IMG/VR virus record: IMGVR_UViG_2802428982_000005
Coordinates: 19,927-83,926 of that record
DNA length: 64,000 nt
Direction: 5' to 3' (one strand)
Source of the DNA: a virus
Taxonomy: Duplodnaviria; Heunggongvirae; Uroviricota; Caudoviricetes
Both the position numbers and the translations under genes were made by a program. Of the stretch, positions 2,813 through 62,645 are shown piece after piece. Position 1 is the stretch's first letter, and every line of letters begins with the position of its first letter. The notes beneath the pieces are model-generated. The model saw nothing but the letters and a program-made list of their open reading frames with translations, was not told the origin of the DNA and did not search any database.

Positions 2813-4215
2813 TAGACCGGCATGACCTCGACGTACAGCTGGGCGTTGGCCTTGTCGAACAGGTAGGCACCGGCGAGGCCGTCGTTGTACAGGTTGACGT
2901 AGACGGTGCCCTGGTTGCCGGTGTGGTTGGCAGGCACCAGGGCGTAGGTGTTGTCTGGCGTGATGGCCATGGTGGGGTCGGACGGTGTGGACGCGTGGGG
3001 CGACATGTGCGCCCACTGGGAGGTGTTGCCGAAGCCGCGGGCAATGAGTTGGCCGGAGGTGGGGTGTCCCAGCCGGACCTCGCAGCCGATGATGAGCGGG
3101 TCCTGATCCAGCTCCACGCCGGTCGCTTTGATTTTCCCGAACACAATCGGCTTCCACGGGAACGGTTGGGCGGGAATGGCAAAGGACCCGATGGGTGCCC
3201 GGGTGGAGAAGCCCAGGAAGTTGGTGAACGCTGCCTCGGGCACCGTGAACGGCCTAGGCAGGATCGACCCAATGGACATAGGCCGCCACTTACCGGATGC
3301 CCCGATGTTTTCGTCGAAGCCCAGAACCTGGAGGTGTTGTGGCGGGGTGGACATGTCGACGTCCGGGGCCTGCCCGAGGCTGGCGGCAACGCCTTGCGGG
3401 CCGCGCGGGACCTTCAAGTACAGGCGGCACGACGGCGCGTACGGCGACCCTGTCTGGTGGACGTAGGAGTCTTGGGCGCCCTCCGGCGGGAGAAGCTCGA
3501 CGCTCCAGCTGATCTGGGGCACCGGCCCCGGGGGGCCTTCCGATCCCATCATCAGGATGCGGTACTCCGTGCCGAACCAGATGTAGGCACGAGACCCGAT
3601 GAGGTTGGTGACGCCCTCCTGCTCGGTTGTCACGACCACGGAGGAGCTGGTGCCGCCGGTGGGCGTGCCGGTCATCTGCGGCTGCCCGATACCGGCCTTG
3701 GAACCGGCGAAGGTCACCGTGTAGGGGCCGCCGGGGTTGCCGACGACCTCGACGTCGCCGGTCGAGACGTTCGGCAGGGCAACCAGCGCGTCCTCGAACG
3801 CCTGAGCGGTGGCGTTACCGGCAATGGATGAGGTCGGCTGGCCGTCGTACGCGATGGTGAAGGAGGTGGGGTTGCCGTTGAGTGTCACCGTCTGGACCTC
3901 GTTGACGGTGGCGTAGTGGTTCATGATCCAGTACTTGCCGATGTCTTCCTCGATGTCCTGGAGGTTGGTCGGCAGGTCCTCGGGGTCATCGATCATCGAC
4001 TTCTGGAGGCGCAGGGCGAAGGCGTTGGTACCGGCCGGACCCTGTGGCCCCATGAGAGCGGGAACCACCAAAGTTGCCTGATCGCCTTGGATTTCCATGG
4101 TGACCGCGTACTGGTCCGGTGTCGCGCCGTCGGACACCACGGCGTAGATGTGGGTGTTCGTCAGCAGGGACTTGAGGTACACCATCAGGCCGATGGGTGG
4201 TACCGGTGCGGTCAT
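2812..4215 (-). CDS. minor tail protein with collagen-like Gly-X-Y stretch (467 aa)
   Basis: GPQGPAG / GPPGPVP repeats; position in the tail module directly downstream of the tape measure block. Confidence 0.65.
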   Translation of the reverse strand: MTAPVPPIGLMVYLKSLLTNTHIYAVVSDGATPDQYAVTMEIQGDQATLVVPALMGPQGPAGTNAFALRLQKSMIDDPEDLPTNLQDIEEDIGKYWIMNHYATVNEVQTVTLNGNPTSFTIAYDGQPTSSIAGNATAQAFEDALVALPNVSTGDVEVVGNPGGPYTVTFAGSKAGIGQPQMTGTPTGGTSSSVVVTTEQEGVTNLIGSRAYIWFGTEYRILMMGSEGPPGPVPQISWSVELLPPEGAQDSYVHQTGSPYAPSCRLYLKVPRGPQGVAASLGQAPDVDMSTPPQHLQVLGFDENIGASGKWRPMSIGSILPRPFTVPEAAFTNFLGFSTRAPIGSFAIPAQPFPWKPIVFGKIKATGVELDQDPLIIGCEVRLGHPTSGQLIARGFGNTSQWAHMSPHASTPSDPTMAITPDNTYALVPANHTGNQGTVYVNLYNDGLAGAYLFDKANAQLYVEVMPV

Positions 4216-4827
4216 CTAGTCCTCCTTGGGACGGGGTGCGTCGGTGTAGCGGACCTCTGGTTTCGTGTGCCACTCGGCGGTCACGACCGGCCCCTCGCCG
4301 TCGCGGCGTGCGGCTAGACCGCGGACGTCGGGTGGGCGGAGTCGGTCGTCGCTGTAATCGCCTGGCTGTAGGTCTCGTTCGGCGTCGTCGGGGGCGTTGA
4401 CGTCCACCCATGTGCACGCGTTCTCGTAGATGCCTGGGCCGTGCATGCGCCGCTTTTTGATGTGTGCGGTGGCGGTGCGGCGGAAGCCGTACAGCACTGC
4501 GGTCCAGGCGATGGCGAGGATGGTGGCGGACATATGGTTGAGGTCGTGGACGCGCCCGTTCTGGTCGACCGGGTACTCCATGACCTCCAGCAGCTCCAGG
4601 TATGCGCGCTGTATCTCGCGCATTTCTGCGACCTTCGCTGCCTGCTCGATGTCCAGTCCGGCGTCGAGACCGATCTGCATATCTGCTGTGAGGTCGCCAT
4701 TTTCGGCGTCGTCAGCTGCCTCGCAGACGGCAACGTCGCGCGGGGAGAGCGTCGCTGTGTCGGCCGCCGGTGGGGGCGTCTGGTCTGCCGGTACGCGGTG
4801 CGCCTTGCCTGGCCGGTCGGCGGCCAT
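4216..4827 (-). CDS. hypothetical tail-module protein (~203 aa)
   Basis: Start MAADRPGKA at 4827..4825 overlapping the upstream stop; ORF-track N-terminal extension rejected. Confidence 0.5.
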   Translation of the reverse strand: MAADRPGKAHRVPADQTPPPAADTATLSPRDVAVCEAADDAENGDLTADMQIGLDAGLDIEQAAKVAEMREIQRAYLELLEVMEYPVDQNGRVHDLNHMSATILAIAWTAVLYGFRRTATAHIKKRRMHGPGIYENACTWVDVNAPDDAERDLQPGDYSDDRLRPPDVRGLAARRDGEGPVVTAEWHTKPEVRYTDAPRPKED

Positions 4828-7676: not shown

Positions 7677-10600
7677 GGCCGAGGCAGTCCCGTCATCCGG
7701 GTGTTCATCCGGTCGGGCGGCTTCACCAGGCCTCCTGGGTCGTTGATGGTGACGGGGCCGTAGAACGCGGCACCGGTGGCGTTGCTGTTGTTGCTGTTCT
7801 GGTTGGTCGTGTAGTTGTTCCCGCCCGGGTTCTGGCTGTTGGGCAGGAAGTCGCCGACCTGTGGGAGCGCTGCCTGGAGTGCGTCGCCGACCACGCCCAT
7901 GCCGCCGTCGCCGAAGTCGAACTCTCCAAGGCCTCCGTTGCCGGGGCCGGGGGCGCCGCCTGGGCCATGGCGGTTGTTGCGCAGGGCCTGAGTACCCAAG
8001 GGGTTTTGCTGCTGTTGCTGCGGTCCGCCGAATGCGTTCTTGAGCATTCCGCCGATGGCGTTTGCGCCTCCGGTGAACAGCTTGAAGATGCCCCACTCCA
8101 TGGGGTTGGAGAAGATGGAGCCGTCGAGGCCGAGCATCTCCATGGCGCCGGACATCATGTCCTTGGCGAAGCTCTTACCATCGGGACCGCTGCCCGGCTG
8201 CTGGCCGTTGCGTCCGCCGCGGCCCCGGGCGTCGGCGTCGTTGACTTGTTCTTGCTTCGTGGCCAGGTCGTCCAGCGCGTCCTTGTGCTCGCGCTGCGCC
8301 CGGGATAGCCGCTCCTCGGCGGCTGCCTGCTCGGACGGCTTCACGTTCTTCTTGCTCTGTAGTTCGTCGAGCTTCCGTTGTGCCTGTTCGATGTCGAACT
8401 GCTTGTCCTGGACCTTCTGCTCTGCGTCGCGCAGTTGGCGTCGCTGTGCGGGGGATGCGCCGCCCCCACCGCTTCCCCCACCGCCGTAACCGCCTGCCCC
8501 GCCTCCTCCGCTGCCGGAGCCGTACATGCTGTAGCCGCCGCCTGCTGCGCCGCTGGGCCAGCCGTCGGGGTACATGGCGTTGACGGGGATGTACGCCTGG
8601 TTGGTGAACTGGGGGTCGTCGGCGCCTGCGGCGCCCGCGCCGACGGTGAACTTGCCTACGCTGCCACCGGATTCGGCGTTGCGGCCGTCGGGCAGCGTGA
8701 CGGCCATGTGGCCGCCGCCGGGGCCGCCGTTCTTCCATCCGACCCGGAGGGTGCCTGCTGGTCCGCGGCCCATGATGGCGCCGCGGGCGGCGAGCCAATC
8801 GGCTGCGTTACCGGTCGCCATTCGCTCGCCGTACAGGGGCTGGCCGACGGCGGCGTTGACGAGGACGGACGCGGCGCCGGAGCAGTCGGTGCCGGATGGG
8901 CTGTGGCCGCCGCGTACGTAGGGCGCGCCTGCCATGTCGTTGGCTGCGTCTTCGATTGAGATGGGGCCGCCGCCCGCGTATCCGGGTATGCCGGTGAGGA
9001 TTCGCAGGAAGTTGGCGGACGGTACCCAGCCGCGGTTCATGGCGTTGATGAGCGGCATGTTGTCGCGGGTGGACTGCGCGGTGTTGATCGATTCCCGGTT
9101 GGATACCTTGATGAATCCCCCTGCGCCACCGCCTATTACGCGGGCGAGGATGGAGTCGCTGGTGCCCGTCCCTGGGCCGCTGATGACGCCGCGGCTGTCG
9201 ACATGTCCACCGGAGGCGCGGCCGGGTACCTGCCCGGCGAGGGTGGCTGCGCTGAATACGCCCTGTAATCCGGGCGGCAAGATCGCGCCGAGTGAGTTGG
9301 CCAGTTTGAGGTCGATGGGAAGGGTGGCGGTCGTGTTGTTGACCTTGTACACCAGGTCGTTGAAACGCTTCTGCGCCTCATCGGTTGCGGCGGTGACCTT
9401 TACGATTCCGCCGGGCAGCTGCGTGACGGTGTACCCGAGTTCTTCGAGTTTCTTCTTCGTCTCGTCGTACTTCGCCGGGTCGACCTTGAGGTCTATCGAC
9501 TTGTTGTTGGGCACCGACACGATGGCGGCGCCGAGTTCCTTAAACCTGGCGGTGCCTTCCTCGGTCGCCTTCCACAAGCCGTACTGGGCTTCTGCACGGT
9601 CTCGCAATGACTGTGCGCCCTTGTCCGTCTCTCGTCGCTGCTCGTTGACGTTCTGAGTTAGCGTGATAAGCGACTCATTAGCGTCCGGCATGGCGTCGAT
9701 AATCTGTTGCAGTCCAACGAGATTTTGGTCACCGGGGTTGGCCGTGCGGTACTTTGCAATCTTCTCGTTGACGGTGTCCCAGCCGTTGCCCTCCTTGAGG
9801 AGCGCGTTGTACAGCTCGTCGGATGACACCCCCATGGCCTGGTACTGCTGCTGGATGACCTTCCAGTCCAGCTTCGTGCCGCCTGATCCGGTGATAGAGA
9901 CCTTGTCCAGGCCCTCCCGCACACCCTTGTCTAGCGCCAGCTTCTTGATGATGTCGTACGCCTGCGCATTTCCTGTTCCAGTTGCGGCGTCTACCAACAT
10001 GTTTGGGTCGATGCCTAGGCCCTTGGCGCGCCCGATGTCGGTGGTCTTGTAGGGGTCTTCCTTGCCGAACCGCTCGGCGGCCTTCCTACGGGTTTCGTCG
10101 GTGACACGACCGGTGTCCTGGTCCAGGGTGGCGCGCAATTCCTCCTCGGCCTGCTTCTGCTCCTGCGCCTTCTGCGCGGCCTTCTGGTGGGCGTCGGCAA
10201 TCATGCCCATAGCGATGCCGACACCGGCGGCGGCAACACCCCACGGGCCGCCGAGCATGGACAGGACCCCGGACCCGGCGAGCTTCATGCCGGTCATGGC
10301 TGCCCCGGCGGTTCCTGCGGTGCGGGAGAAGAACAGGGACCGGTCGGCAGCCTGGTTATAGCTGTCCCGCATCTGCGTGACCCATCCGCGTTGTGCGCGT
10401 GTCGATTCGCCAGCAGCTCGTGTCGCGTTCTCAATGGCCTGCTGTGCCTGCGCAGCGGGGGTACGCCATCCAGCGAAGGCGGTGCCCCATGCCTGGGTGG
10501 CCTTGGCGGCAACCTGTAGAGCAGGGCCGGTCAGCTTGGACTTGAGGTACAGGGCGGTGAGGACTGCGACGAGACCGGTGGTGAGCCATTGGTTGTTGCC

Positions 10601-12382
10601 GAGGATGTCGGCTACAAGTTTCAGCGGCGGCTCCAACGCCTGCATGGCGAAACCTAGTGCACGCCAGCCTGCTACGGCAGTTGCTCCGGCGCCCATTGCG
10701 ATGGCCTTGGACGCAGCAGCGAGAGAGGGTGCCAGGTCCTTGGCAGCGCTGGAAATGTCGCGCCAGCCCTGCCGGATCTGGTCGACCGCGGTACCGCTGC
10801 CTCCACCGCCGGTCCTGAGGTCACGCATCGCGTCGGCCGCCTTGTCCAGCCAGCCGGTCATCCCCCGACCGGCTGACTGCAAGGACGGCGAAACAAGATC
10901 GTAAAGAGCAAGTTTCGCGCTCTCGGCGGTGTTCTTTAGCCCTTCGACCACCCCTGGTAGGCCCTGCATCTGGGCGGCGGCCATCTCGCTGGCACCACCG
11001 GCGCGGCCGACGGCCCGGAACATCTCGTCGAACATCTGGACGCCGCCACCCGCTGCGACCATGGCCGCACGCATGGCGTCGGAGCCGAATAGGATGTTGG
11101 TGTCGGCCTGGAACTCCTCTTCGGTCATCCTCTTTGACGCTGCGGCAACCTGTTCCAGCATGGAGCGGTAGCCGACGAACTTGCCGGTGGTGTCGTACAG
11201 GGTCAGGCCCAGGCTTTCGATGGCGCCCTGTGCGGGGTTGCCCTGGTCAGTGATGGCCTGGAGCGAGGTCTTGATGAGGGTGCCTGCATCGGAGCCGCGG
11301 ATACCGGCGTTGGCCAGAAGTCCGAGGGCAGTGATGGTGTCCTGGGCGGTCAGGCCGAAGCCGTGGGCGACGGCACCGGCCTGCTGGAGGCCGAGGGCGA
11401 AGTCGCTGATGTCGCCGGTGGATGCGTTGGCGACGTTCGCCAACATGTCGGCCATATTGGCCGCCTGGTTGGCGTCCATTCCGAAGGCGTGGAGGGCGTT
11501 GGCCTGAATCTTGGCCGCCTCTGCTGCGGATACCTGTGCAGCGGTGGCCAATTGCAGGGTGCCGCGGGCCGCTGACATGGACTGGTCGACGTCGAATCCG
11601 CCCTTGGCGAGTTCGGTCATCGCCTGGGCTGCGTCGGAGGCCGATACCCCGGCGAGCTGGGTGTCGGCGCCCAGCTCGCGGGCGCGCCGCGATACGGCGG
11701 CCATCTGTTCAGGTAGGGCGCGGGTGACGCCCTGCATGGTGTTGAGCGCCGAGTCGAACGAAAGTCCCGTGTCTACAACACTTTTGACGGCGGCAATGAA
11801 CCCTCCACCTGCGGCCAGTGCGGCACCGGCGTTGAGGGCGCGCTGGAATCCCTGCGCGAAGCGAGCGCCGGAGTCCGACCCATACGCCTCGGCCCGCATA
11901 ATCAGCCCGGCACCGAACGGCATCTTGACCTGACCGGACGCCTGTGACTGCGCCTTCTGCGCACGCTCCAGGTCCCGGGTGGCGCGGGTCAGATTCTGTG
12001 TCGACAGCTCCTGCGCGCGCCGCGCCCGCGCCACTCCTTCCTCAGCGGCGGCCCGCTGAGTGGCTGTGGCCCTAGCCTTCTCGTTGAGTTCGTTGAGTCG
12101 TGTCTGTGCGACGGAGAGGCGGCCGGTGGCGTCCGCGTCTGCCTTCTTCGCAGTCGCGAGTGCCTTCTCCGCACGTTCGACCTGGCGGAGTGCGTCGACT
12201 GCCGACTTGCCGCTGGCGGCAAGGTTGCGGGCCATGTCGGCGCCCATGGTGCGGGTGGCACGCCCGAAGCGGCGTTCCGCGTCGCGGCCGATGCGTTCGA
12301 CGCCCGCGGCGAGGCCGGACGCCTCGGGCATGAGTGGCACCCATACTTGCGCCAGTTCAACGGCGGCGACTGCTGGACTCAA
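7673..12382 (-). CDS. tail tape measure protein (1569 aa)
   Basis: Longest ORF in the element; coiled-coil Ala/Gln-rich N-terminus; embedded Cys-containing peptidase-like motif PYVRGGHSPSGTDCSGAASVLVNAAVG; Gly-rich GGGYSMYGSGSGGGGAGGYGGGGSGGGG; sits immediately after the G/G-T chaperones. Confidence 0.9.
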   Translation of the reverse strand: MSPAVAAVELAQVWVPLMPEASGLAAGVERIGRDAERRFGRATRTMGADMARNLAASGKSAVDALRQVERAEKALATAKKADADATGRLSVAQTRLNELNEKARATATQRAAAEEGVARARRAQELSTQNLTRATRDLERAQKAQSQASGQVKMPFGAGLIMRAEAYGSDSGARFAQGFQRALNAGAALAAGGGFIAAVKSVVDTGLSFDSALNTMQGVTRALPEQMAAVSRRARELGADTQLAGVSASDAAQAMTELAKGGFDVDQSMSAARGTLQLATAAQVSAAEAAKIQANALHAFGMDANQAANMADMLANVANASTGDISDFALGLQQAGAVAHGFGLTAQDTITALGLLANAGIRGSDAGTLIKTSLQAITDQGNPAQGAIESLGLTLYDTTGKFVGYRSMLEQVAAASKRMTEEEFQADTNILFGSDAMRAAMVAAGGGVQMFDEMFRAVGRAGGASEMAAAQMQGLPGVVEGLKNTAESAKLALYDLVSPSLQSAGRGMTGWLDKAADAMRDLRTGGGGSGTAVDQIRQGWRDISSAAKDLAPSLAAASKAIAMGAGATAVAGWRALGFAMQALEPPLKLVADILGNNQWLTTGLVAVLTALYLKSKLTGPALQVAAKATQAWGTAFAGWRTPAAQAQQAIENATRAAGESTRAQRGWVTQMRDSYNQAADRSLFFSRTAGTAGAAMTGMKLAGSGVLSMLGGPWGVAAAGVGIAMGMIADAHQKAAQKAQEQKQAEEELRATLDQDTGRVTDETRRKAAERFGKEDPYKTTDIGRAKGLGIDPNMLVDAATGTGNAQAYDIIKKLALDKGVREGLDKVSITGSGGTKLDWKVIQQQYQAMGVSSDELYNALLKEGNGWDTVNEKIAKYRTANPGDQNLVGLQQIIDAMPDANESLITLTQNVNEQRRETDKGAQSLRDRAEAQYGLWKATEEGTARFKELGAAIVSVPNNKSIDLKVDPAKYDETKKKLEELGYTVTQLPGGIVKVTAATDEAQKRFNDLVYKVNNTTATLPIDLKLANSLGAILPPGLQGVFSAATLAGQVPGRASGGHVDSRGVISGPGTGTSDSILARVIGGGAGGFIKVSNRESINTAQSTRDNMPLINAMNRGWVPSANFLRILTGIPGYAGGGPISIEDAANDMAGAPYVRGGHSPSGTDCSGAASVLVNAAVGQPLYGERMATGNAADWLAARGAIMGRGPAGTLRVGWKNGGPGGGHMAVTLPDGRNAESGGSVGKFTVGAGAAGADDPQFTNQAYIPVNAMYPDGWPSGAAGGGYSMYGSGSGGGGAGGYGGGGSGGGGASPAQRRQLRDAEQKVQDKQFDIEQAQRKLDELQSKKNVKPSEQAAAEERLSRAQREHKDALDDLATKQEQVNDADARGRGGRNGQQPGSGPDGKSFAKDMMSGAMEMLGLDGSIFSNPMEWGIFKLFTGGANAIGGMLKNAFGGPQQQQQNPLGTQALRNNRHGPGGAPGPGNGGLGEFDFGDGGMGVVGDALQAALPQVGDFLPNSQNPGGNNYTTNQNSNNSNATGAAFYGPVTINDPGGLVKPPDRMNTRMTGLPRP

Positions 12383-48882: not shown

Positions 48883-49349
48883 TGCCCTTGGTCTGGTCGT
48901 ACTTCGACGGATGGGGTGACGTTGTGGCCAGTGCCCTCGTGGTGGCCGTCGGCCCATAGGTCACGGTCGTCCTCGGCGCCAAACGGGAGCTTCATATCGA
49001 CGCACTCCTGGCAGGAGGCGAGGTAGTACACCGCGGGGCGGCCGGGGAATACCGTTGGAAGGTTGACCTTTACGGCAATAGCGGAGGCTAGGCGCTCCCC
49101 GTCAGCGTCCAGAGGCAGGGCCATGTACCCCGCTCCATCGTCGCGCAGGGTCGCCTCCACGACGTACTGCTCGCTGACGTAAGTGCGGTGACCTTGCAGC
49201 GAGTTGTGGCGGACGGCAAATGCTTCCGCGTGAACCTTGCCTTCATCGGTGCCTGGGAATGCCCAGGTTTGGCCGTCGCTGTCACCGGGTCCGGGCGGGC
49301 ATACGGTGCATACGACGGCCCATTGCCGTTGTGTATCAATGATCTTCAT
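48879..49349 (-). CDS. hypothetical protein (156 aa)
   Basis: ORF; CTVCPPG...CQEC. Confidence 0.4.
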   Translation of the reverse strand: MKIIDTQRQWAVVCTVCPPGPGDSDGQTWAFPGTDEGKVHAEAFAVRHNSLQGHRTYVSEQYVVEATLRDDGAGYMALPLDADGERLASAIAVKVNLPTVFPGRPAVYYLASCQECVDMKLPFGAEDDRDLWADGHHEGTGHNVTPSVEVRPDQGQ

Positions 49350-50308
49350 CGGTTTACGTCGCTGTCTACGTCGCTGTGCACGTGCTCGATGGCCTTGTTA
49401 GGGTCTGCGGTGCGCCAGTCAGGCCACGTGCGTTGCTCGTTCCTGGTCTGCTTCGCAAGGATCGCGTCGATGATTTGTTGCGGTTCCCAGCCCGCGCGCC
49501 AGGCTCCGTCGAAGGCCAGGATGATGACGTCTACCCATTCGGAGATGTCGTCAGGGGCGTCCCGTATCTCGTTCAGCTCTTTGCCGATGTGGTCCAAGAC
49601 TCCGTTGGTTCGGGCACCCGGGCCGAAGGTTGCGAGGCTGAATGCACGCTGTCGCGCCAGGTGTGCTGCGTCTATTACGCGGGTGGGTGACGTGCCCGGT
49701 CGCTGCTGTTCGTCCACCGTTGTGGGCTCACCGCACCCGGCCGCCCCGAACTCGTCCCATGGGATAAACCGGTCTACTTCGAAGACCTCACCGCGCCGGA
49801 CGCGCATACGGTCGATGGCGTTGTCGACGTTGGTTTCATTCGCGCGGGCCTTGCACCAGAACCCCCATAGGCGTACCCGCCGCCCTGTCACGATGAGTGT
49901 CCAGCACGGGAGCTTGCGCTGATCGCGACGCGCGAGGAACTGATTTGAGTGCGTCGCGGCCGGTACTAACTCCACGCGGTGACGCCATGTGCCTCGCCGG
50001 AATGCCAGCGGCCGGTCGCCCCAGAACAGGCGCCACGGCTCCGGGGCGGACCTGACGGACCGACCCTCCTCAGTGACCTCCACGTACTGCCCCCACAACA
50101 TCAGGGAGACGAACCACCAGGGGTGGTCGTGCAGGGCGCGGTCGTCGTCGTCACGCAGGAACTTGTGTAGGTAGATGTTGAGCCACCGGTTGCGAGGGAT
50201 TACGTACCAGCGCAATAGGTACGGCGCCTCGCCTTCGGCGCCGATGGGTTGGTGCGGTTCCAGGCGCAGCCACTTGCGCAGCCAGCCTTTGTTGGTGGGC
50301 GCAGTCAT
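49346..50308 (-). CDS. two-domain protein with C-terminal MazG-like nucleotide pyrophosphohydrolase domain (320 aa)
   Basis: C-terminal LDHIGKELNEIRDAPDDISEWVDVIILAFDGAWRAGWEPQQIIDAILAK (MazG/HisE-like EExxE helix pair); N-terminal DHPWW-containing domain of unknown function. Confidence 0.5.
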   Translation of the reverse strand: MTAPTNKGWLRKWLRLEPHQPIGAEGEAPYLLRWYVIPRNRWLNIYLHKFLRDDDDRALHDHPWWFVSLMLWGQYVEVTEEGRSVRSAPEPWRLFWGDRPLAFRRGTWRHRVELVPAATHSNQFLARRDQRKLPCWTLIVTGRRVRLWGFWCKARANETNVDNAIDRMRVRRGEVFEVDRFIPWDEFGAAGCGEPTTVDEQQRPGTSPTRVIDAAHLARQRAFSLATFGPGARTNGVLDHIGKELNEIRDAPDDISEWVDVIILAFDGAWRAGWEPQQIIDAILAKQTRNEQRTWPDWRTADPNKAIEHVHSDVDSDVNR

Positions 50309-51741: not shown

Positions 51742-52139
51742 CCGGCCGCCGCCTTCTCCTTGGCGGCCTGCTCTGCGGCCTTGATGTTGACCGCGTTCTC
51801 GATGATCGGGTCCATGTAGGTGTACGCGTCCCCGGGTAGCACGCTGACCTTCACCGTTTCGCCGCGCACCTTCTGGACTGCATTCGCCCACCGCCGCAAC
51901 TTGGCGACGTCGGACAGCTGCTCGGACGACGGGCAGGTGTTTTCTAGCCAGGTGTGCTGGTCGCGGAGGAACTTGCCGCACACGTCCTTCGCCCGCGGTA
52001 TCTGGTGCAGAAAGATCCGGTTGCCGGTCATGTGCGACAACAGGTCCTGCACCTGCACCACGGTGCAGACGGCGCCTTCGGGGAGTCCGTTGGTGACGGC
52101 TAACACCGCCACCAACGGGAACTCCTTCCTCCTGCTCAC
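51738..52139 (-). CDS. hypothetical protein, paralog of 33536..33922 (133 aa)
   Basis: See paralog alignment under 33536..33922. Confidence 0.5.
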   Translation of the reverse strand: MSRRKEFPLVAVLAVTNGLPEGAVCTVVQVQDLLSHMTGNRIFLHQIPRAKDVCGKFLRDQHTWLENTCPSSEQLSDVAKLRRWANAVQKVRGETVKVSVLPGDAYTYMDPIIENAVNIKAAEQAAKEKAAAG

Positions 52140-52960
52140 AGCTCGCGGATCGTGTCGGGCGCGGGACCGAACACGGACTTGATGACAGCCAGCTTCGCCA
52201 CCTCAGCGTCGAACGCCGCGTCCTTGACGTCCCCGGCGCGGTCCAGCTTGTAGCCGAGGAGCAAGCCGTCCTGGCCGATGCGGAACCGCAGGCGGGCGGT
52301 GAGGTCGTACACGTCGCCGCGCTCGTAGACGGGGATGCGGAGGGTGAAGTGCTCGGGCACCTCGATATGTCCGCCTTTGCCGCCAGCGGTTGCGGTGGCC
52401 TCCTCCTTGTACTGGAACTGCACCTCGCCGGACTGGGTTCGGTGGCCGGACTGGAACTCGACCTTGCGCTTCGTCTGGAAGTTCTGCACGACCTCCATCA
52501 GGTCGGCCGCCGGTGGTGAGGTGATGGCGGCTAGGCCGTCCTCGATGTGCTCGGCGAACGCAATCTGGTTGAGCAGCTTGCCGTCGGCTGCCGCCCAGTG
52601 GTTCCACTCGCGGGACAGCTGGAGCGCTACCACGATGCGGTGGTCACGCCAGCCTTTGTCGTTCAGTACCGCGGTGATTCGGCTGGGGCCGCGGTCGGCG
52701 TACGCGACGGCATCGAGGTGCAGGGCGCCGTCGGTCAGCTTGTTGAAGCTGTCGACGTCCAGCACGGTGGTGGTGCCGCGGTCGCGTCGAGGGTTCGGCA
52801 GGTACCGCTCCAGCGAGTCGAAGTCGCGGCCCTCGTCGTCGCGGGTGACGAACGACAGGACGTGCTCGGTGTCGGGAACAACCTGCTCGGTGCTGTAACG
52901 CTCCGCCGCGTTGGCGAGTTCGGCGACAGCGTCTGCCTCGGTACGGATTTCGTCGGTCAT
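52136..52960 (-). CDS. hypothetical protein (274 aa)
   Basis: ORF; no motif recognised. Confidence 0.45.
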   Translation of the reverse strand: MTDEIRTEADAVAELANAAERYSTEQVVPDTEHVLSFVTRDDEGRDFDSLERYLPNPRRDRGTTTVLDVDSFNKLTDGALHLDAVAYADRGPSRITAVLNDKGWRDHRIVVALQLSREWNHWAAADGKLLNQIAFAEHIEDGLAAITSPPAADLMEVVQNFQTKRKVEFQSGHRTQSGEVQFQYKEEATATAGGKGGHIEVPEHFTLRIPVYERGDVYDLTARLRFRIGQDGLLLGYKLDRAGDVKDAAFDAEVAKLAVIKSVFGPAPDTIREL

Positions 52961-52963
52961 GGG

Positions 52964-53329
52964 TCAGGCTTCCTTTCGGATGTTCGTGGTGCTCTCGGCG
53001 ACCGCTTTCATGGACTCGAACTGGAGTTGCGCCGGGTCGGTGCGGGTGACGTTGCCCTCGCGGTCGACGAACCAGAGGGATACCTGGCGGTCGGCCTGCG
53101 GCGCCTTGACAGTCACGTCGTCCTTGATGACCAACATGGAGGTGTTGGCCTGCTCAGAAACGCTGAGCTTCAACGTGAGTGACCCGGCCTTGCCGGTCGC
53201 GCGGACGGCGGCGACGACTTCCTTGAGGCCGTCGGACAGCTCGTCGTGCACGCGGCCCTTCTGTAGTTCCCGCAGGAAGTCGGCGAACGGGCGTACCCGG
53301 TCCGCTTCCTCGGGGGCTGGAGTGGTCAT
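52964..53329 (-). CDS. hypothetical protein (121 aa)
   Basis: ATG 53329 (MTTPAPEEADRVRPFADFLRELQKG...). Confidence 0.4.
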   Translation of the reverse strand: MTTPAPEEADRVRPFADFLRELQKGRVHDELSDGLKEVVAAVRATGKAGSLTLKLSVSEQANTSMLVIKDDVTVKAPQADRQVSLWFVDREGNVTRTDPAQLQFESMKAVAESTTNIRKEA

Positions 53330-53355
53330 ATGGGCGGTGTTCCTTTCGTGGGGTG

Positions 53356-54243
53356 TTACTTGATGGGTGCGGGGATGGTGGCGAGGGCGCCGGTGCCGGG
53401 CCAGCAGCCCCACGGCGACATGCCCTTGTCCAGTGCCTTCGTGATGCAGTTCTGCACAATCACGTTGGGGTCGTTGGACACTGATGAGGAGAGGATGCGG
53501 TTGGCCTCGGCCTGTTCGGTGGCCGTCTTCTTCGCCTGTTCGGCCTTCGCGGTGTTCGCGCGCTCTGCGTTGAGCTCGTTGATACGGGCCTCGGTGCCGT
53601 CGTCGTAGTCGATGGTGGGGACGGCGACGTCCAGGATGTCGACCTGGTCACCCACCAGGGCGCGCAGCTTCTCGGACGCTTCCTTGGCGAAGGTCTCCAG
53701 CGGTAATCCGTTGGCCCACTTGGTTGCCAGTGGGTCGAGCTTGGAGAACACGTCGTTGAGTGAGACCTGGAGGTTGCGGGTGATCAGGTTGGTGCGGACG
53801 TTGTCGAATGACCGGTATTGCACGTACAGCTCGTCGGCGGCGTCCTGCTTGATCTGCCAGCGCACGGATACGTCAGCGTCGGCGGTGGACGAGTTGCCTA
53901 GTCGGACCTTGATGCGGCCGGTGCCCTCGTATTTGTCGATCTGGACTGCTGCGTCCATCTCATCGACTGTCGCCCACGGCTTCTTCCAGTGCAGACCGTT
54001 GGACAGGGTGTCGCCGGACGGCTTTCCGAATACCGTCTCGATACCAACCTTGCGTGTACCAACGACCGTGAAGGAGCCGATCACGAGGACGAGGACGGCG
54101 ATAGCCAAGGCGATACCGCCAATGAACAGTGTCACTACGGGGCCATCAGCACGCCGGTTGAATCGGCGGCCGACAAGCCCGCCCAGCAGTAGCAGTAACG
54201 CAATACTGCCGAAGATCAGGAATGTTACGAATTCCCAGGACAT
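53356..54243 (-). CDS. SPFH/Band-7 (prohibitin/HflK-like) membrane protein (295 aa)
   Basis: Two N-terminal TM helices; signature VGIETVFGKPSGDTLSNGLHWKKPWATVDEMDAAVQ; coiled-coil Ala/Glu-rich C-terminus. Confidence 0.65.
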   Translation of the reverse strand: MSWEFVTFLIFGSIALLLLLGGLVGRRFNRRADGPVVTLFIGGIALAIAVLVLVIGSFTVVGTRKVGIETVFGKPSGDTLSNGLHWKKPWATVDEMDAAVQIDKYEGTGRIKVRLGNSSTADADVSVRWQIKQDAADELYVQYRSFDNVRTNLITRNLQVSLNDVFSKLDPLATKWANGLPLETFAKEASEKLRALVGDQVDILDVAVPTIDYDDGTEARINELNAERANTAKAEQAKKTATEQAEANRILSSSVSNDPNVIVQNCITKALDKGMSPWGCWPGTGALATIPAPIK

Positions 54244-54247
54244 TTGG

Positions 54248-55456
54248 TTAGTTCTCCTTGTTGTTGAGTGCGGCGATTAGGTTTGCCGCTTCGTTTTCGG
54301 ACAGGTCGTTGACGTCCGATATGTCCCTGCCGATGACCGTCTTGAGGTAGGCCAGTGCGTCGGCAGCGGATTCTTTGGTGCGGAACGAGTACTTGGCGTT
54401 GCCTAGAAGGCCGCGGACGGTGCCGATGTCCTTCTTCGTTGCCAGGTACTCGCCTCGGCTGTTCACTTCTGCCGGGTCGGCTCCGTCAGGTGTTCCGCTG
54501 CCGGACGGCGGGATGAGGTCACCGCCGTCCGGCGCGGGGACCTCCTCGGCCGCGGGTTCTGTAGCGCCCGAACCCGTTTCCGGGTCCCCGATGGTGGGCG
54601 CCAGATCACCGGTGGTCGTTGCCGCGGGGTCCGTCTTCGGAGTGGCCTTTGTTTCTGTTGCGCGGGCGGCGATTTCGTCTTGGGTGGACTGTGAGGCGGG
54701 CGGGAAGATCTCGCGCTGGTCCATGCCGTCGCGGGTGATGGAGGTGTACGTGATGCCCATCTGGGCGACGTCTCCGGCGTCCCAGGCGCCGCGCTTCTTC
54801 CCGATCCGGGCCTCCATCTGGGCCTCGGTGACACCGAGTTCCTGCCGGAACTTGGCGACCATGGTTTCGATGCGGTCCTTGAGGGGGACGCCTTCGCCCT
54901 TTTCCAGGGTGTTGCGGCACAGGTCCTGCGCCATCTCGGTAAACCACTTCGGCAGCACCGACGAAATGCATTCGCGGACAGCGCGGGCACCGGCGTTGTT
55001 GTTGTTGTTCGTGATGTCGCCGAGGTCGTTTAGCTCCTCGCGGCGCCCCTGCTTCATACGGGCGTGCGGCACGATGAACGTACGTGTGGAGCGCGTGTTG
55101 GTCTGGACGTCCCAGGCGAATGCCTGGATCTCGGACTCAGCTTTGAGGTCGTCGCGGTGCAGCTCGTTGACGCCGTATTGAACGTTGCCCCACAGCCGGG
55201 CCAGCTCGCGCATGAGGTGCACGGAGGGGCCGGTGCCGCGGTTGGGCACCTGGTAGAACGCCTGTACCGCCATGGCCATGCGGCTGCACGCGTCCCGCAT
55301 TTCCGCCTCCGCACGCTGGAGGTCACGGGGAATCTGTTGCGCCACAATGACTGCTGACTGGACCTCGGCGACGGCGCGGGACTGTTCCACCGAGGTGGCT
55401 TGGCTGATCGCGGTCCGGGGTGCGGCGGCGATGGGCTGGTACTGCGAGACGGTCAT
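54248..55456 (-). CDS. putative single-strand annealing protein (RecT/Erf-type, called by context), 402 aa
   Basis: Lies directly downstream of, and translationally coupled to, a RecE/YqaJ-type exonuclease; Asn/Thr/Pro-rich linker and acidic C-terminal tail; no family motif confirmed. Confidence 0.4.
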   Translation of the reverse strand: MTVSQYQPIAAAPRTAISQATSVEQSRAVAEVQSAVIVAQQIPRDLQRAEAEMRDACSRMAMAVQAFYQVPNRGTGPSVHLMRELARLWGNVQYGVNELHRDDLKAESEIQAFAWDVQTNTRSTRTFIVPHARMKQGRREELNDLGDITNNNNNAGARAVRECISSVLPKWFTEMAQDLCRNTLEKGEGVPLKDRIETMVAKFRQELGVTEAQMEARIGKKRGAWDAGDVAQMGITYTSITRDGMDQREIFPPASQSTQDEIAARATETKATPKTDPAATTTGDLAPTIGDPETGSGATEPAAEEVPAPDGGDLIPPSGSGTPDGADPAEVNSRGEYLATKKDIGTVRGLLGNAKYSFRTKESAADALAYLKTVIGRDISDVNDLSENEAANLIAALNNKEN

Positions 55457-56352
55457 TAGTCAAGGTCTCCTTCTTGCTGGTAGATGGCGTAGCTGGGCAG
55501 GGATATGGAGTTGATGCCCTGGCCGTAGTCCGGCCAGTGGTCGTTGGCAACGCATTGCGCGTAGAGGTCGATGGCCTTGCGGTTGCGTCGTCGGCCGAGA
55601 TCGATTGCGGCGGGGTCTAGTTCGTTGACCGACACGAGGTAGGGCGGGTTCTTGGACTGGACGATGAACACGAACGCGGCGTCGTCGGCTATCTCGCATG
55701 CCGCTAGCCCGTCGAGGTACCAGGGGGCCTGCATGTGGTACCCGTATTCGGCTGCCGCCTTGGCGAAGTGACCTGGGTGCGCCGATGTCGAGGTCTTGTA
55801 GTCGACAACCACCAGGCGGTGGCGGCCGGGGTTGGGGAGCCAGTCGGGCCGGAGGCGCAGTCGCACCCCGGTTTCAGGGTCGTGCCAGTACCCGGATAGC
55901 TCGGGTGTTCCGTCTGCCAGCAGGATGCGGGCAATGGGGTGCTCGCGGACCTTGGCGGCCATAGCCTTTGCCTCCGCGACATCGTCGATGTGCATGGGTA
56001 TCTGGCCGTTAGCGCGGGCCTCCTTCGCCGCCTCCTTCCACATAGCGGTCGATGTAGGCGAGTCGGACACCTTGCCGTCTTTGGTCAACCCGTGTTCCTT
56101 CGGGTCTAGCGCGACGATCTCCCCGCCCTCGCCGAGTACGTACAGGTGGGCAGCGTGGCCGAAGTCGTACTCCTTCTTCGGTGTCCGCGGCTGGTCCTGG
56201 TAGTGGCGGAATATCGCTGGGCATGAGGGCGCCAGGAGCGCGCGGGCGCCGGAGGAGGACAGGCTGCCGCGGTCTGCGTGGTAGGCCTCGTCGGGGATAC
56301 CGGCATACATGCCGTCCACGGCAGGGATCAGCTTGGTGTCGGCGGCGGTCAT
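55456..56352 (-). CDS. RecE/YqaJ-like PD-(D/E)XK exonuclease (298 aa)
   Basis: ATG 56352 overlaps the HNH stop; VVVDYKTS (D..E.K-type motif); MTAADTKLIPAVDGMYAGIPDEAYHADRGSLSSSG N-terminus typical of YqaJ-like proteins. Confidence 0.55.
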   Translation of the reverse strand: MTAADTKLIPAVDGMYAGIPDEAYHADRGSLSSSGARALLAPSCPAIFRHYQDQPRTPKKEYDFGHAAHLYVLGEGGEIVALDPKEHGLTKDGKVSDSPTSTAMWKEAAKEARANGQIPMHIDDVAEAKAMAAKVREHPIARILLADGTPELSGYWHDPETGVRLRLRPDWLPNPGRHRLVVVDYKTSTSAHPGHFAKAAAEYGYHMQAPWYLDGLAACEIADDAAFVFIVQSKNPPYLVSVNELDPAAIDLGRRRNRKAIDLYAQCVANDHWPDYGQGINSISLPSYAIYQQEGDLD

Positions 56353-62336: not shown

Positions 62337-62645
62337 ATGCGCAATATGACTGCTGCATTCGAATCGGGAAATATCCCCCCGAGCCGCCTGCGACACCGCT
62401 TACGGATCGCACGCGAGGAGGCGCAACTAGATCAGCACCAACTAGCCGAACTCATGGGAGTCGGCCGGTCGGTGGTTGGCAATTGCGAGAGCGGACGGAC
62501 GGTGCCGAAGAAGATCGTCGTCAACGCTTGGGCATTGGCCTGCGGCGTGCCAGCGAGTTGGCTAGCCACGGGTGAAGGTGAGCAGCCGCCGGAAGATGAC
62601 GGCCCTATGGTGCGCCCGAAGGGATTCGAACCCCTAACCTTCTGA
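62337..62645 (+). CDS. XRE/cI-like immunity repressor whose ORF ends inside the host tRNA-Arg (start 62337 or 62346; ORF-track TTG 62310)
   Basis: HTH LDQHQLAELMGVGRSVVGNCESGRTVP; last ~12 codons (MVRPKGFEPLTF) are encoded by the tRNA-Arg 3' half; stop TGA 62643-62645. Confidence 0.65.
   Translation: MRNMTAAFESGNIPPSRLRHRLRIAREEAQLDQHQLAELMGVGRSVVGNCESGRTVPKKIVVNAWALACGVPASWLATGEGEQPPEDDGPMVRPKGFEPLTF

Follow-up and report, generated by a model that had tools for sequence, protein, structure and literature searches.

Why SPFH genes are carried by T4-like coliphages, mycobacteriophages and giant viruses is a modest wider question, and a 2026 paper states that the reason "remains unclear." A gene in a caudoviricete genome raises this question at a single locus: what might a two-pass SPFH membrane protein do for the phage that encodes it, on which side of the plasma membrane, and at which stage of growth? 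The gene lies in a 64,000-nt stretch of DNA (positions 19,927 to 83,926 of IMG/VR virus record IMGVR_UViG_2802428982_000005), here called the window, which is a cluster MabK prophage of Mycobacterium abscessus. The gene and its family are already known, and the finding itself matters little, since both are annotated in GenBank and PHROGs. The family is tractable, with genetic tools available for mycobacteriophages, both lytic and temperate carriers, and a predicted outward orientation that can be tested cheaply and decisively. Its homology to Rv3090 of M. tuberculosis, together with the patatin phospholipase gene that neighbors Rv3090, ties phage biology to mycobacterial envelope biology.

The locus and its expression

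The complete coding sequence of the SPFH/band-7-like membrane protein lies on the minus strand at 53356..54243 and, from the open reading frame list and its translation, encodes 295 amino acids plus a stop codon. The sequence-only reading had placed a 295-residue open reading frame at exactly these positions, with no mention of the strand, and our translation from the ATG start codon agrees with the sequence quoted there. The product is 100% identical to an NCBI protein (P0001) named "SPFH domain-containing protein [Mycobacteroides abscessus]." The window shares 94.7 to 96.8% DNA identity with prophages prophiGD43A-5 and prophiT37-1, in which the counterparts of the gene, gp18 and gp17, respectively, are named "band-7-like membrane protein"; the MabK alleles of the protein are 89 to 90% identical in amino acid sequence to that of the window and show allelic differences only. 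The earlier description of a prophage-encoded SPFH/Band-7 membrane protein therefore holds, on the MabK assignment and on the Pfam match given below. The open reading frame, its SPFH core and its gene neighborhood are not products of chance.

The gene is number 18 in a co-directional early operon of the MabK prophage, which begins at excise. RecE-like and RecT-like genes lie upstream, and a 121-aa PHROG-204 gene, a DUF2303 gene and a DUF7736 gene follow downstream, an arrangement that bears out the earlier placement beside recombination genes. A Shine-Dalgarno sequence, AAGGAG, was read directly at 54254..54259 on the minus strand, 10 nt 5' of the ATG. The TAA stop codon of the RecT-like gene (54248-54250) is 4 nt before the ATG, and an intergenic promoter therefore has no room. 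No sigma-70-like promoter was found between 52900 and 55600 in a scan whose E. coli-type consensus fits mycobacterial promoters poorly, and the terminator scan found none near the gene on its own strand. RNA-seq of the GD43A lysogen indicated that most of these prophages are silent except for toxin-immunity cassettes, a general statement that is not specific to gene 18 (PMC8092301). In Alice, Sham, Kudefre and Bricole, the homologue is located in the same early, non-structural arm of the genome. We consider it likely that the gene is switched on together with the early lytic genes, following induction or infection, and is not transcribed in the quiescent lysogen, because it belongs to a co-directional block, combines the 4-nt spacing with a ribosome binding site, has no promoter or same-strand terminator that the scan detected nearby, lies in a prophage reported to be largely silent in lysogens, and is found in the early arm elsewhere.

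Domain architecture and fold

The protein has the SPFH fold and consists of two transmembrane (TM) helices, the SPFH domain, a 39-residue helix and a tail with a Cys pair; it belongs to PHROG 200 and occupies the operon position described above. We hold its identity and this architecture with high confidence. The SPFH (Band_7) domain covers residues 58-214 (53602..54072, minus strand), as defined by Pfam, the AlphaFold2 model and Foldseek. The SPFH core noticed earlier was confirmed by Pfam Band_7 (PF01145), which matched residues 60-244 over profile positions 2-175 of 176 with an E value of 1.5e-18 and 67.9 bits, compared to a cut-off of 23.6. The AlphaFold2 model has a mean pLDDT of 81.7, with values of 84-93 in the beta/alpha core of the domain, and the invariant columns of the family contain family-specific SPFH motifs (RLGNSSTAxAD and FDNVRxNL).

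A Foldseek search against the PDB returned 62 matches at E<=0.001, and the top 50 were all SPFH proteins or the related major vault protein. The best match was HflC (7vhq_G; E=4.9e-13, 22% identity). The leading folds, HflC, erlin, prohibitin and HflK, had E values of 5e-13 to 3e-10 and ranked above QmcA (4.5e-8) and flotillin (about 1e-7); the ranking of subfamilies is tight, with stomatin at about 5e-11. HflC was also the sole match, albeit a weak one (E=0.026), in a sequence-profile search of the PDB, where the alignment spanned TM helix 2 and the start of the SPFH domain. A single-sequence PDB search yielded sodium-channel fragments only, which were dismissed as noise. No HflK/HflC model of NCBIfam matched the protein at E<=0.1, the one match obtained being irrelevant (10.9 bits), so that the protein does not count as an equivalog of either, and the Flot and Band_7_C domains of Pfam were not found in it.

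E. coli HflC/HflK, the best structural match, resembles the window protein in that the SPFH domain directly follows a TM helix, and its extracytoplasmic SPFH face is predicted for the window protein as well. The two differ in several respects. HflK and HflC are encoded by a gene pair, whereas the window protein is the product of a single gene with no second Band_7 gene among its neighbors; it has two TM helices instead of one, and its putative wall helix has 39 residues in place of the long CC1-CC2 of HflK/C. HflK/C have historically been tied to phage biology through lambda CII and FtsH. Prohibitin and erlin, the next-best folds (E about 1e-11 to 1e-12, 14-20% identity), are eukaryotic hetero-oligomers whose C-terminal region differs from that of the window protein; their SPFH cages are turned toward a compartment other than the cytosol and are associated with machinery for proteolysis or quality control. 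Flotillin, stomatin and QmcA share the SPFH fold and an N-terminal hydrophobic anchor with the window protein but face the cytoplasm, opposite to its predicted orientation. Pfam searches of the protein and nine neighboring genes found no NfeD partner and no Flot or Band_7_C domain.

Membrane anchor and predicted orientation

TM helix 1 (residues 3-28; 54160..54237, minus strand) was defined by hydropathy and as an AlphaFold2 helix with a pLDDT of about 90. It begins almost at the N terminus, where the conserved motif is M-S/T-W-Q/E. TM helix 2 (residues 34-56; 54076..54144, minus strand), defined in the same two ways, ends in V-I-G-S. Kyte-Doolittle peaks of 2.56 and 2.98 and the modeled helices thus agree with the two N-terminal TM helices seen earlier, and two TM segments are present in 119 of 125 homologues. 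The basic loop between them (the GRRFNRRADG region; 54145..54159, minus strand) has a net charge of +3 and is predicted to be cytoplasmic. Across the family, net loop charge is ambiguous, being positive in 56 homologues and zero or negative in 46; the positive-inside rule was therefore applied to counts of Lys and Arg in place of net charge. By these counts, the loop has a mean of 3.15 Lys plus Arg residues, compared to 0 in the N-terminal tail, in 118 of 119 homologues. The Alice loop is acidic and has no Lys or Arg at all.

A lipobox-like L-x-G-C closes TM helix 2 in 34 of 104 homologues, including prophiGD43A-5 gp18 (LIGC). The window protein has Ser in V-I-G-S where gp18 has Cys; PHROG 200 is labeled as a bacterial lipoprotein, and the window allele is without the lipobox that would define one. 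Its TM anchor is 54% identical to that of gp18, the contrast between sister alleles being 54% against 96-100%. LeBron gp49, a distant mycobacteriophage SPFH protein, has a canonical lipoprotein signal peptide.

Judging from these sequence features, the topology is probably N-out/loop-in/C-out, which would put the SPFH domain, helix and tail outside the plasma membrane, on its periplasm-like face. We favor this orientation because the loop is rich in Lys and Arg, a Cys pair is conserved, lipobox variants occur, LeBron gp49 has a signal peptide, the Rv3090 tail is mannosylated, and the fold matches that of HflC. An outward SPFH face would be shared with HflK/C, prohibitin and erlin, unlike flotillin, stomatin and QmcA.

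The C-terminal helix, the tail and Rv3090

The SPFH domain is followed by a long Ala/Glu/Lys-rich helix in the AlphaFold2 model (residues 215-253, 39 residues; 53485..53601, minus strand). The coiled coil reported earlier is accounted for by this one helix, although the coiled coil of HflK/C is far longer. In a profile search, it aligns with the coiled-coil region of HflC, and it is equivalent to the oligomerization, or wall, helix of SPFH cages. The remaining residues, 254-295 (53359..53484, minus strand), form a tail with the pattern DPNV-x-V-x-N-C(266)...G-C(280)-W-P-G and a Thr/Pro-rich end, which AlphaFold2 models with low confidence (pLDDT 40-62). C-x13-CWP is found in 119 of 120 homologues, the window protein having Cys266 and Cys280; Alice, Kudefre and Sham have a Cys pair as well, and one occurs even in a Streptomyces phage protein at 26% identity. 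We infer, with fair support, that Cys266 and Cys280 form a disulfide on the outer face and that the Thr/Pro-rich tail is able to carry O-mannosylation.

The family also holds conserved chromosomal members, including the Rv3090-patatin locus. Rv3090, an "alanine and valine rich protein," is likewise about 295 residues long and has the two TM segments, the SPFH domain and the GCWPG tail. The window protein is about 58% identical to the patatin-linked Rv3090-type clade over residues 57-295. Its tail is identical to the published Rv3090 peptide at 14 of 23 positions; chromosomal homologues have tails that agree with this peptide at 77-95%. Peptide 274-295 of Rv3090 was hexosylated in culture filtrates of the wild-type and PMT-overexpressing strains (PMC7287972), and no reliable glycopeptides were detected in the PMT (rv1002c) mutant in the same study (PMC7287972). 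By sequence comparison, then, the window tail is homologous to the O-mannosylated tail peptide of Rv3090.

The genomic setting of the two differs. Rv3090-type genes are located 12-47 bp upstream of a patatin-like phospholipase gene, a synteny seen in about 22 chromosomal loci. This synteny is absent at the prophage gene, which is followed by the PHROG 204 and DUF2303 genes in an early operon that lacks a patatin gene. According to papers that cite Cui et al. 2022, Rv3090 has been termed a virulence factor (PMC10917576, PMC11619525). It is also reported to be associated with the cell wall and to promote late apoptosis and dissemination. Published work on Rv3090 has called it a protease as well; the sequence gives no hint of one.

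Distribution among phages

The sequence-only reading had held SPFH proteins to be uncommon in phages, a view contradicted by the data. The protein matches PHROG 200, a low-numbered PHROG family, with an E value of 5.9e-60 over residues 2-284. A tblastn search detected the family in 368 phage records out of 50,697; coverage reached 80% or more in 226 of the 368, and the host genera include Mycobacterium (258 records), Streptomyces (89), Gordonia (15) and Rhodococcus (5). Most of the annotated phage records that were listed give the product as "band-7-like membrane protein." The carriers include many myophages of cluster C (~155 kb) and Streptomyces phages of ~130 kb; both groups are lytic. The SPFH fold was found in 31 viral representatives in BFVD at E<=0.001, and SPFH open reading frames in T4-like phages were noted as early as 2006 (PMC1524935). 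On the strength of the 368 phage records, PHROG 200 and the published annotations, SPFH genes are common in actinobacteriophages. The family, made up of two-pass proteins of the SPFH superfamily, is shared by actinobacteriophages and mycobacterial chromosomes.

PHROG 200 members (prophiGD43A-5 gp18, prophiT37-1 gp17, Bricole gp118 and Alice gp24) have the same architecture as the window protein, and amino acid identity to it is 67% in cluster M and 43-48% in cluster C. No conserved gene partner was found, since the neighborhoods of Alice, Kudefre, Bricole and Sham differ from one another. A MazG gene follows the band-7 gene in two of these four phages; by annotation, the PHROG-204 and DUF2303 genes adjoin it in none of the four, and neither at the window nor in the four phages is there an FtsH-like or NfeD-like neighbor. 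LeBron gp49, whose overexpression causes mild growth inhibition (PMC13148394), was considered as a proxy for phenotype and dropped: it is an SPFH lipoprotein, although BLASTP detects only a 10-residue tail motif in common.

Possible functions

Our best guess, by analogy, is that the protein forms a cage like that of HflK/C, located on the outward side of the membrane, and is made early in lytic growth. The much shorter wall helix, the missing second subunit and the lack of an NCBIfam HflK/HflC match count against the analogy. To our knowledge, all SPFH proteins solved so far oligomerize, and the top structural matches found by Foldseek are all cage-forming SPFH complexes. By the same analogy, the SPFH domains and long helices would mediate oligomerization into a ring or cage enclosing a membrane patch. 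Such a cage could enclose or exclude a host membrane complex, for which the FtsH protease caged by HflK/C offers a precedent; we regard this step as possible but doubtful, and the target of the cage is a guess, because no partner gene is conserved beside band-7. Phage and host membrane proteins, along with the envelope, would thereby stay in working order until programmed lysis sets in. Taken as a whole, the explanation of an outward, two-pass, cage-forming SPFH protein expressed early in the lytic cycle is, in our judgment, evenly balanced between right and wrong. It bears on the earlier proposal of a membrane-level role during lysogeny or infection: lysogeny is disfavored by the position inside an early operon with no promoter-like site detected for the gene itself, the reported silence of the prophages in lysogen RNA-seq and the lytic carriers, while a role in infection stays plausible.

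An early, outward membrane protein might instead serve superinfection exclusion, stopping genome entry by other phages at the plasma membrane; it could do so by capping or sequestering a membrane component needed for DNA entry. Exclusion proteins that share this location and timing include T4 Imm and Sp, HK97 gp15 and the lipoproteins Ltp and Llp. The predicted extracytoplasmic, membrane-anchored and early character of the band-7 protein would suit such a role, as would its patchy spread over unrelated phage clusters with no conserved partner and an anchor that diverges sharply between sister alleles (54% versus 96-100%), as in an arms-race or mosaic module. Yet the SPFH domain is highly conserved with respect to housekeeping chromosomal copies (about 58% identity), which favors a shared biochemical role over recognition peculiar to phages; the prophage region is reported to be silent in lysogens, so that a lysogen would not be protected; and the literature search turned up no SPFH protein shown by experiment to act in exclusion. 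The tie to abortive infection or exclusion systems suggested earlier also found no backing in PADLOC-DB, where the protein matched no defense family (BrxE, at E=0.02 and 12.7 bits, is spurious noise) and the three genes downstream had zero matches. We judge exclusion unlikely. A flotillin-like microdomain scaffold, as implied by the sequence-only reading, would require the other orientation, with a re-entrant or N-in hairpin holding the SPFH domain on the inner leaflet like flotillin, stomatin and QmcA, where it would bring together proteins for replication, assembly or lysis. Stomatin and flotillin typically have hairpin anchors, the net charge of the loop is not uniformly positive (that of Alice is acidic), the fold also matches stomatin and QmcA significantly, and the gene lies among DNA-metabolism genes. 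Against these points stand the invariant Cys pair, the lipobox variants, the LeBron signal-peptide lipoprotein, a loop with 3.15 Lys and Arg residues on average where the N-terminal tail has 0, the lack of an NfeD partner or a Flot or Band_7_C domain, and the homologous Rv3090 tail, whose O-mannosylation is PMT-dependent and was observed in culture filtrate (PMC7287972). The evidence points to an outward HflK/C-like domain, and an inward scaffold is improbable.

The relationship to Rv3090 suggests a further role, that of a fitness or virulence factor expressed in the lysogen that alters the M. abscessus envelope or the interaction with the host cell. The identity of about 58% to the Rv3090-type clade and the common tail motif are consistent with it, as is the description of Rv3090 as a virulence factor in the citing papers (PMC10917576, PMC11619525); since the genome scan returned no chromosomal copy in M. 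abscessus, the prophage would add a novelty. This role has only a slim chance, however, as the gene lies in the middle of an early lytic operon and not at an att-proximal "moron" site, no promoter of its own was detected, prophage regions outside toxin-immunity loci are reported to be silent (PMC8092301), and many large carriers are lytic. Lysis timing, in which the cage would hold holin or exported endolysin components on the outer face until late infection, fits the membrane location, the outward orientation and the mild growth inhibition by LeBron gp49 (PMC13148394). But LeBron gp49 is not detectable as a full-length homologue, an annotated lysis gene adjoins band-7 in none of the five phage genomes examined, and expression is with the early genes; a role in lysis timing seems very improbable to us.

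Chromosomal loci and the history of the family

A broader version of the early outward cage would unite the phage SPFH proteins and Rv3090 in one exchangeable family of outward, glycosylated, disulfide-bonded cages, deployed early to seize a host envelope function. We offer it as a speculation with little likelihood of being correct. If it were true, the candidate roles would be a novel superinfection block or a trap for a host membrane enzyme, for example FtsH or a patatin-type phospholipase such as the neighbor of Rv3090, and either Rv3090 would be a domesticated phage gene or phages would have repeatedly stolen a host scaffold. In a rough neighbor-joining tree, chromosomal clades nest among phage lineages; as the tree carries no support values, a phage-to-host direction of transfer is left unclaimed. 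Variable flanks were considered as a sign of prophage origin for chromosomal loci and rejected, since the sign fails for L012 and L032, which are sited among metabolic genes. Among the chromosomal loci with variable flanks, L013 and P0093 alone were confirmed as prophage.

The band-7 gene, its product and its prophage

The band-7 gene lies at window positions 53356..54243 on the minus strand and, according to the ORF list and translation, encodes 295 aa from an ATG start; read directly, the sequence has a Shine-Dalgarno motif, AAGGAG, 10 nt 5' of this ATG, and the RecT-like gene's stop codon is 4 nt before it. Pfam Band_7 (PF01145) matches residues 60-244 of the product at E=1.5e-18, and the score of 67.9 bits exceeds the cut-off of 23.6 bits. 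Hydropathy analysis revealed two N-terminal hydrophobic segments. An AlphaFold2 model (57 homologues as input; mean pLDDT 81.7) comprises TM-type helices at residues 3-28 and 34-56, a beta/alpha SPFH core at residues 58-213, a long helix at residues 215-253, a short helix at residues 259-272, and a disordered C-terminal end after it, the tail being of low model confidence. Foldseek returned 62 PDB matches to the model at E<=0.001, and the top 50 consist entirely of SPFH proteins and their relative, the major vault protein. The analysis as a whole establishes the fold, architecture, family, and operon position of the protein. All features named in a sequence-only reading of this DNA, which gave no strand, are present: the SPFH/Band-7 identity, the two TM helices, and the position next to recombination genes, since RecE-like and RecT-like genes precede band-7. 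Its coiled coil corresponds to the long helix after the core, a single 39-residue Ala/Glu/Lys-rich helix.

The window region shares 94.7% identity over 6 kb with Mycobacterium phage prophiGD43A-5 and 96.8% with prophiT37-1, both cluster MabK prophages of M. abscessus with integration-dependent immunity (PMC8092301, PMC9934374); the left end of the prophage is at about window position 62,645. The band-7 gene is gp18 in prophiGD43A-5 and gp17 in prophiT37-1, both annotated as "band-7-like membrane protein," and an NCBI protein with 100% identity is named "SPFH domain-containing protein [Mycobacteroides abscessus]." The gene's identity was thus already on record, and the finding repeats an existing annotation. 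The TM1-loop-TM2 anchor (residues 1-57, window 54073-54243) is 54% identical to prophiGD43A-5 gp18 (8734-9621 of the prophiGD43A-5 region, L001), against 96-100% for residues 58-295 and 91-99% for the flanking genes; this divergence within band-7 is either a sharp mosaic boundary or a fast-evolving anchor.

SPFH genes in phages

The supposed rarity of SPFH proteins in phages is incorrect for those of actinobacterial hosts. By tblastn, 368 phage records carry a homologue (Mycobacterium, 258; Streptomyces, 89; Gordonia, 15; Rhodococcus, 5), and in an evenly spaced sample of these, about half were cluster C myoviruses of ~155 kb, Alice, ET08, and I3 among them. Cluster C myoviruses and ~130-kb Streptomyces phages are lytic. 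The SPFH protein matches PHROG 200, the phage family of band-7-like membrane proteins, at E=5.9e-60, and BFVD holds 31 viral representatives with an SPFH fold at E<=0.001; their sources are giant viruses and phages that infect Streptomyces, Rhizobium, Vibrio, and Salmonella. SPFH ORFs of T4-like phages were tabulated as early as 2006 (PMC1524935), while a 2026 paper states that the reason for phage SPFH genes "remains unclear" (PMC13239085); our literature searches found no functional study of phage SPFH proteins. In SlimJimmy (OQ995428, 63462-63596), the last 44 residues of the protein are left, at 73% identity and with no annotated feature, in what looks like a gene remnant.

Orientation in the membrane

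The main refinement over the existing annotation is orientation: the SPFH domain probably faces out of the cytoplasm, as argued by six independent, indirect lines of evidence. Of 125 homologues, 119 have two TM helices. The TM1-TM2 loop has a mean of 3.15 Lys+Arg and, in the SPFH protein (GRRFNRRADG), a net charge of +3, although the net charge varies across homologues and is not always positive, the Alice loop being acidic; the N-terminal tail of 4-6 residues has no Lys or Arg in 118 of 119. The C-terminal tail carries the motif N-C-x13-G-C-W-P-G in 119 of 120 homologues, the sole exception appearing frameshifted, and a Cys pair is kept in Alice, Kudefre, and even the Streptomyces phage Sham (26% identity). 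In a protein with few other cysteines, such an invariant pair suggests a disulfide and hence an oxidising compartment.

A lipobox-like L-x-G-C ends TM2 in 34 of 104 homologues; this position reads LIGC in prophiGD43A-5 gp18 and VIGS in the SPFH protein of the window, where Ser replaces the lipobox Cys. LeBron gp49 (3927-4823 of the LeBron region, L006), a distantly related SPFH protein of a mycobacteriophage (Band_7 E=1.2e-7), has a classic lipoprotein-type signal peptide (…VVAC); it is devoid of the Cys pair, and its tail, KAVEKGITPW, resembles KALDKGMSPW of the SPFH protein. The C-terminal peptide of Rv3090, the M. tuberculosis chromosomal homologue (residues 274-295, GISPLGCWPGSSALPTIAVPGR), was detected with a hexose in culture filtrate of wild-type and PMT-overexpressing strains, and no reliable glycopeptides were detected in the PMT (rv1002c) mutant in that study (PMC7287972). 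The tails of patatin-linked chromosomal homologues match this peptide at 77-95%, while the tail of the SPFH protein agrees with it at 14 of 23 positions, among them GCWPG and the conserved Thr. Mycobacterial O-mannosylation takes place during Sec export. We infer, with fair support, the outward orientation, the disulfide, and a possibly O-mannosylated tail.

Foldseek ranks HflC first among solved structures (7vhq_G, E=4.9e-13, 22% identity), then erlin, prohibitin, and HflK, all four of which face a non-cytosolic compartment; QmcA (4.5e-8) and flotillin (~1e-7) come lower in the ranking, although stomatin almost equals the top matches. HflC is also the sole PDB profile match (E=0.026), its alignment covering TM2 and the beginning of the SPFH domain.

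Chromosomal relatives

A scan with two peptide patterns, covering one genome per species, identified 44 loci, nearly all labelled Mycobacterium, Mycolicibacterium, or Mycobacteroides and the rest from metagenome bins; it returned no chromosomal copy in M. abscessus or M. smegmatis. At ~22 loci of slow growers, including M. marinum, M. gordonae, M. gastri, M. szulgai, and M. asiaticum (L007-L009 of M. marinum, 8001-10619, and L014-L036), Band_7 is followed 12-47 bp 3' by a patatin-like phospholipase and then DUF732. The arrangement looks like an SPFH-phospholipase operon, suggesting functional pairing; the peptide match places Rv3090 in this group, its patatin neighbour presumably being Rv3091. 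Another ~17 loci, from fast-growing and environmental mycobacteria and metagenome bins (L040:3064-7757, L037-L049, and L052-L054), have a fatty-acid desaturase, an MpaB-like (MpaB/Lcp-like) oxygenase, Band_7, and, ~35 bp 3' of it, a Ser/Thr protein kinase. Two further Band_7 loci lie among other metabolic genes, and the M. franklinii locus and an M. abscessus copy (P0093, an NCBI homologue) are both within prophages.

In a rough neighbour-joining tree without support values, the SPFH protein falls with the cluster M phages, and each of the two chromosomal clades is embedded among lineages of phages and prophages. The gene has clearly been exchanged between phages and hosts, in a direction on which we make no claim. 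Passages in secondary sources describe Rv3090 as a "cell wall-associated protease" and virulence factor (PMC10917576, PMC11619525). Rv3090-type sequence has no protease signature, its family being SPFH; a possible origin of the label is the COG name "regulator of protease activity HflC," carried by several homologues.

Expression and possible function

In prophiGD43A-5, band-7 is gene 18 of an unbroken co-directional block that runs from excise through antirepressor, DnaQ-like exonuclease, HNH endonuclease, RecE-like, and RecT-like genes to band-7 and, beyond it, many genes without a known function. No intergenic space precedes band-7, no sigma-70-like promoter site was found in window 52900-55600 with an E. 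coli-like consensus that fits mycobacterial promoters poorly, and a scan of the surrounding region found no terminator on the band-7 strand. Published RNA-seq of the GD43A lysogen describes most such prophages as silent outside the toxin-immunity loci, in a general statement that does not single out gene 18 (PMC8092301). In Kudefre (with an annotated immunity repressor), Bricole (cluster M), Alice (cluster C), and Sham, the homologue sits in the non-structural arm among early-type or nucleotide-metabolism genes. These four share no neighbour gene; a MazG-like pyrophosphohydrolase gene lies directly 3' in two, Kudefre (NC_060136, band-7 then gene 54) and Bricole (KT591491, gene 119). Operon position and varied neighbourhoods therefore point to a self-contained function expressed in lytic growth, with fair support for early expression, and argue against a lysogeny "moron." The sequence-only reading was correct in its observation and identification; its interpretation is supported only in part, the rarity premise being wrong and the lysogeny role disfavoured.

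All solved SPFH proteins among the best fold matches (HflK/C, prohibitin, erlin, stomatin, flotillin, and QmcA) form a ring or cage around a patch of membrane, in which a protease such as FtsH is often enclosed. By analogy, our best guess is that the phage protein would assemble a cage at the outer surface of the plasma membrane shortly after lytic growth begins; the cage might enclose or exclude a host membrane complex and could stabilise the membrane and its proteins until lysis. Superinfection exclusion is an unlikely but appreciable alternative: the SPFH protein resembles known exclusion proteins in location and timing and has a hypervariable anchor, but no defence family is matched, and the domain is conserved with housekeeping copies. 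We consider a cytoplasm-facing, flotillin-like scaffold improbable, although the variable loop charge would allow it. An Rv3090-like fitness factor expressed in the lysogen has a similarly small chance, the kinship with Rv3090 standing against the gene's place in the early block, and a regulator of lysis timing is more doubtful still. The value left in the finding lies in the predicted outward orientation and the Rv3090 connection, a tractable handle on why phages carry SPFH genes.

The only published phenotype among relatives is mild growth inhibition or mild cytotoxicity of LeBron gp49 (PMC13148394); we rejected it as a proxy, since BLASTP aligns only a 10-residue tail motif with the SPFH protein.

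Among the neighbours, the gene annotated "RecT-like ssDNA binding protein" (window 54248-55456, minus strand) is without a Pfam match; residues 10-277 of its product match PHROG 3657, of unknown function (E=6.5e-107), and C-terminal residues 252-400 weakly match a RecT-like PHROG (E=3.5e-7), and the RecT assignment is therefore thinly supported. Directly 3' of band-7 (window 52136-53329, minus strand) lie two genes, PHROG-204 (121 aa) and DUF2303/PHROG-210 (274 aa), from low-numbered PHROG families of unknown function; neither is annotated beside the SPFH gene in Alice, Kudefre, Bricole, or Sham. A 320-aa ORF (window 49346-50308, minus strand) appears to be a fusion of an N-terminal cysteine-dioxygenase-like domain (PHROG 4786, residues 4-153) and a C-terminal dATP/dGTP pyrophosphohydrolase (PF04447, residues 222-310).
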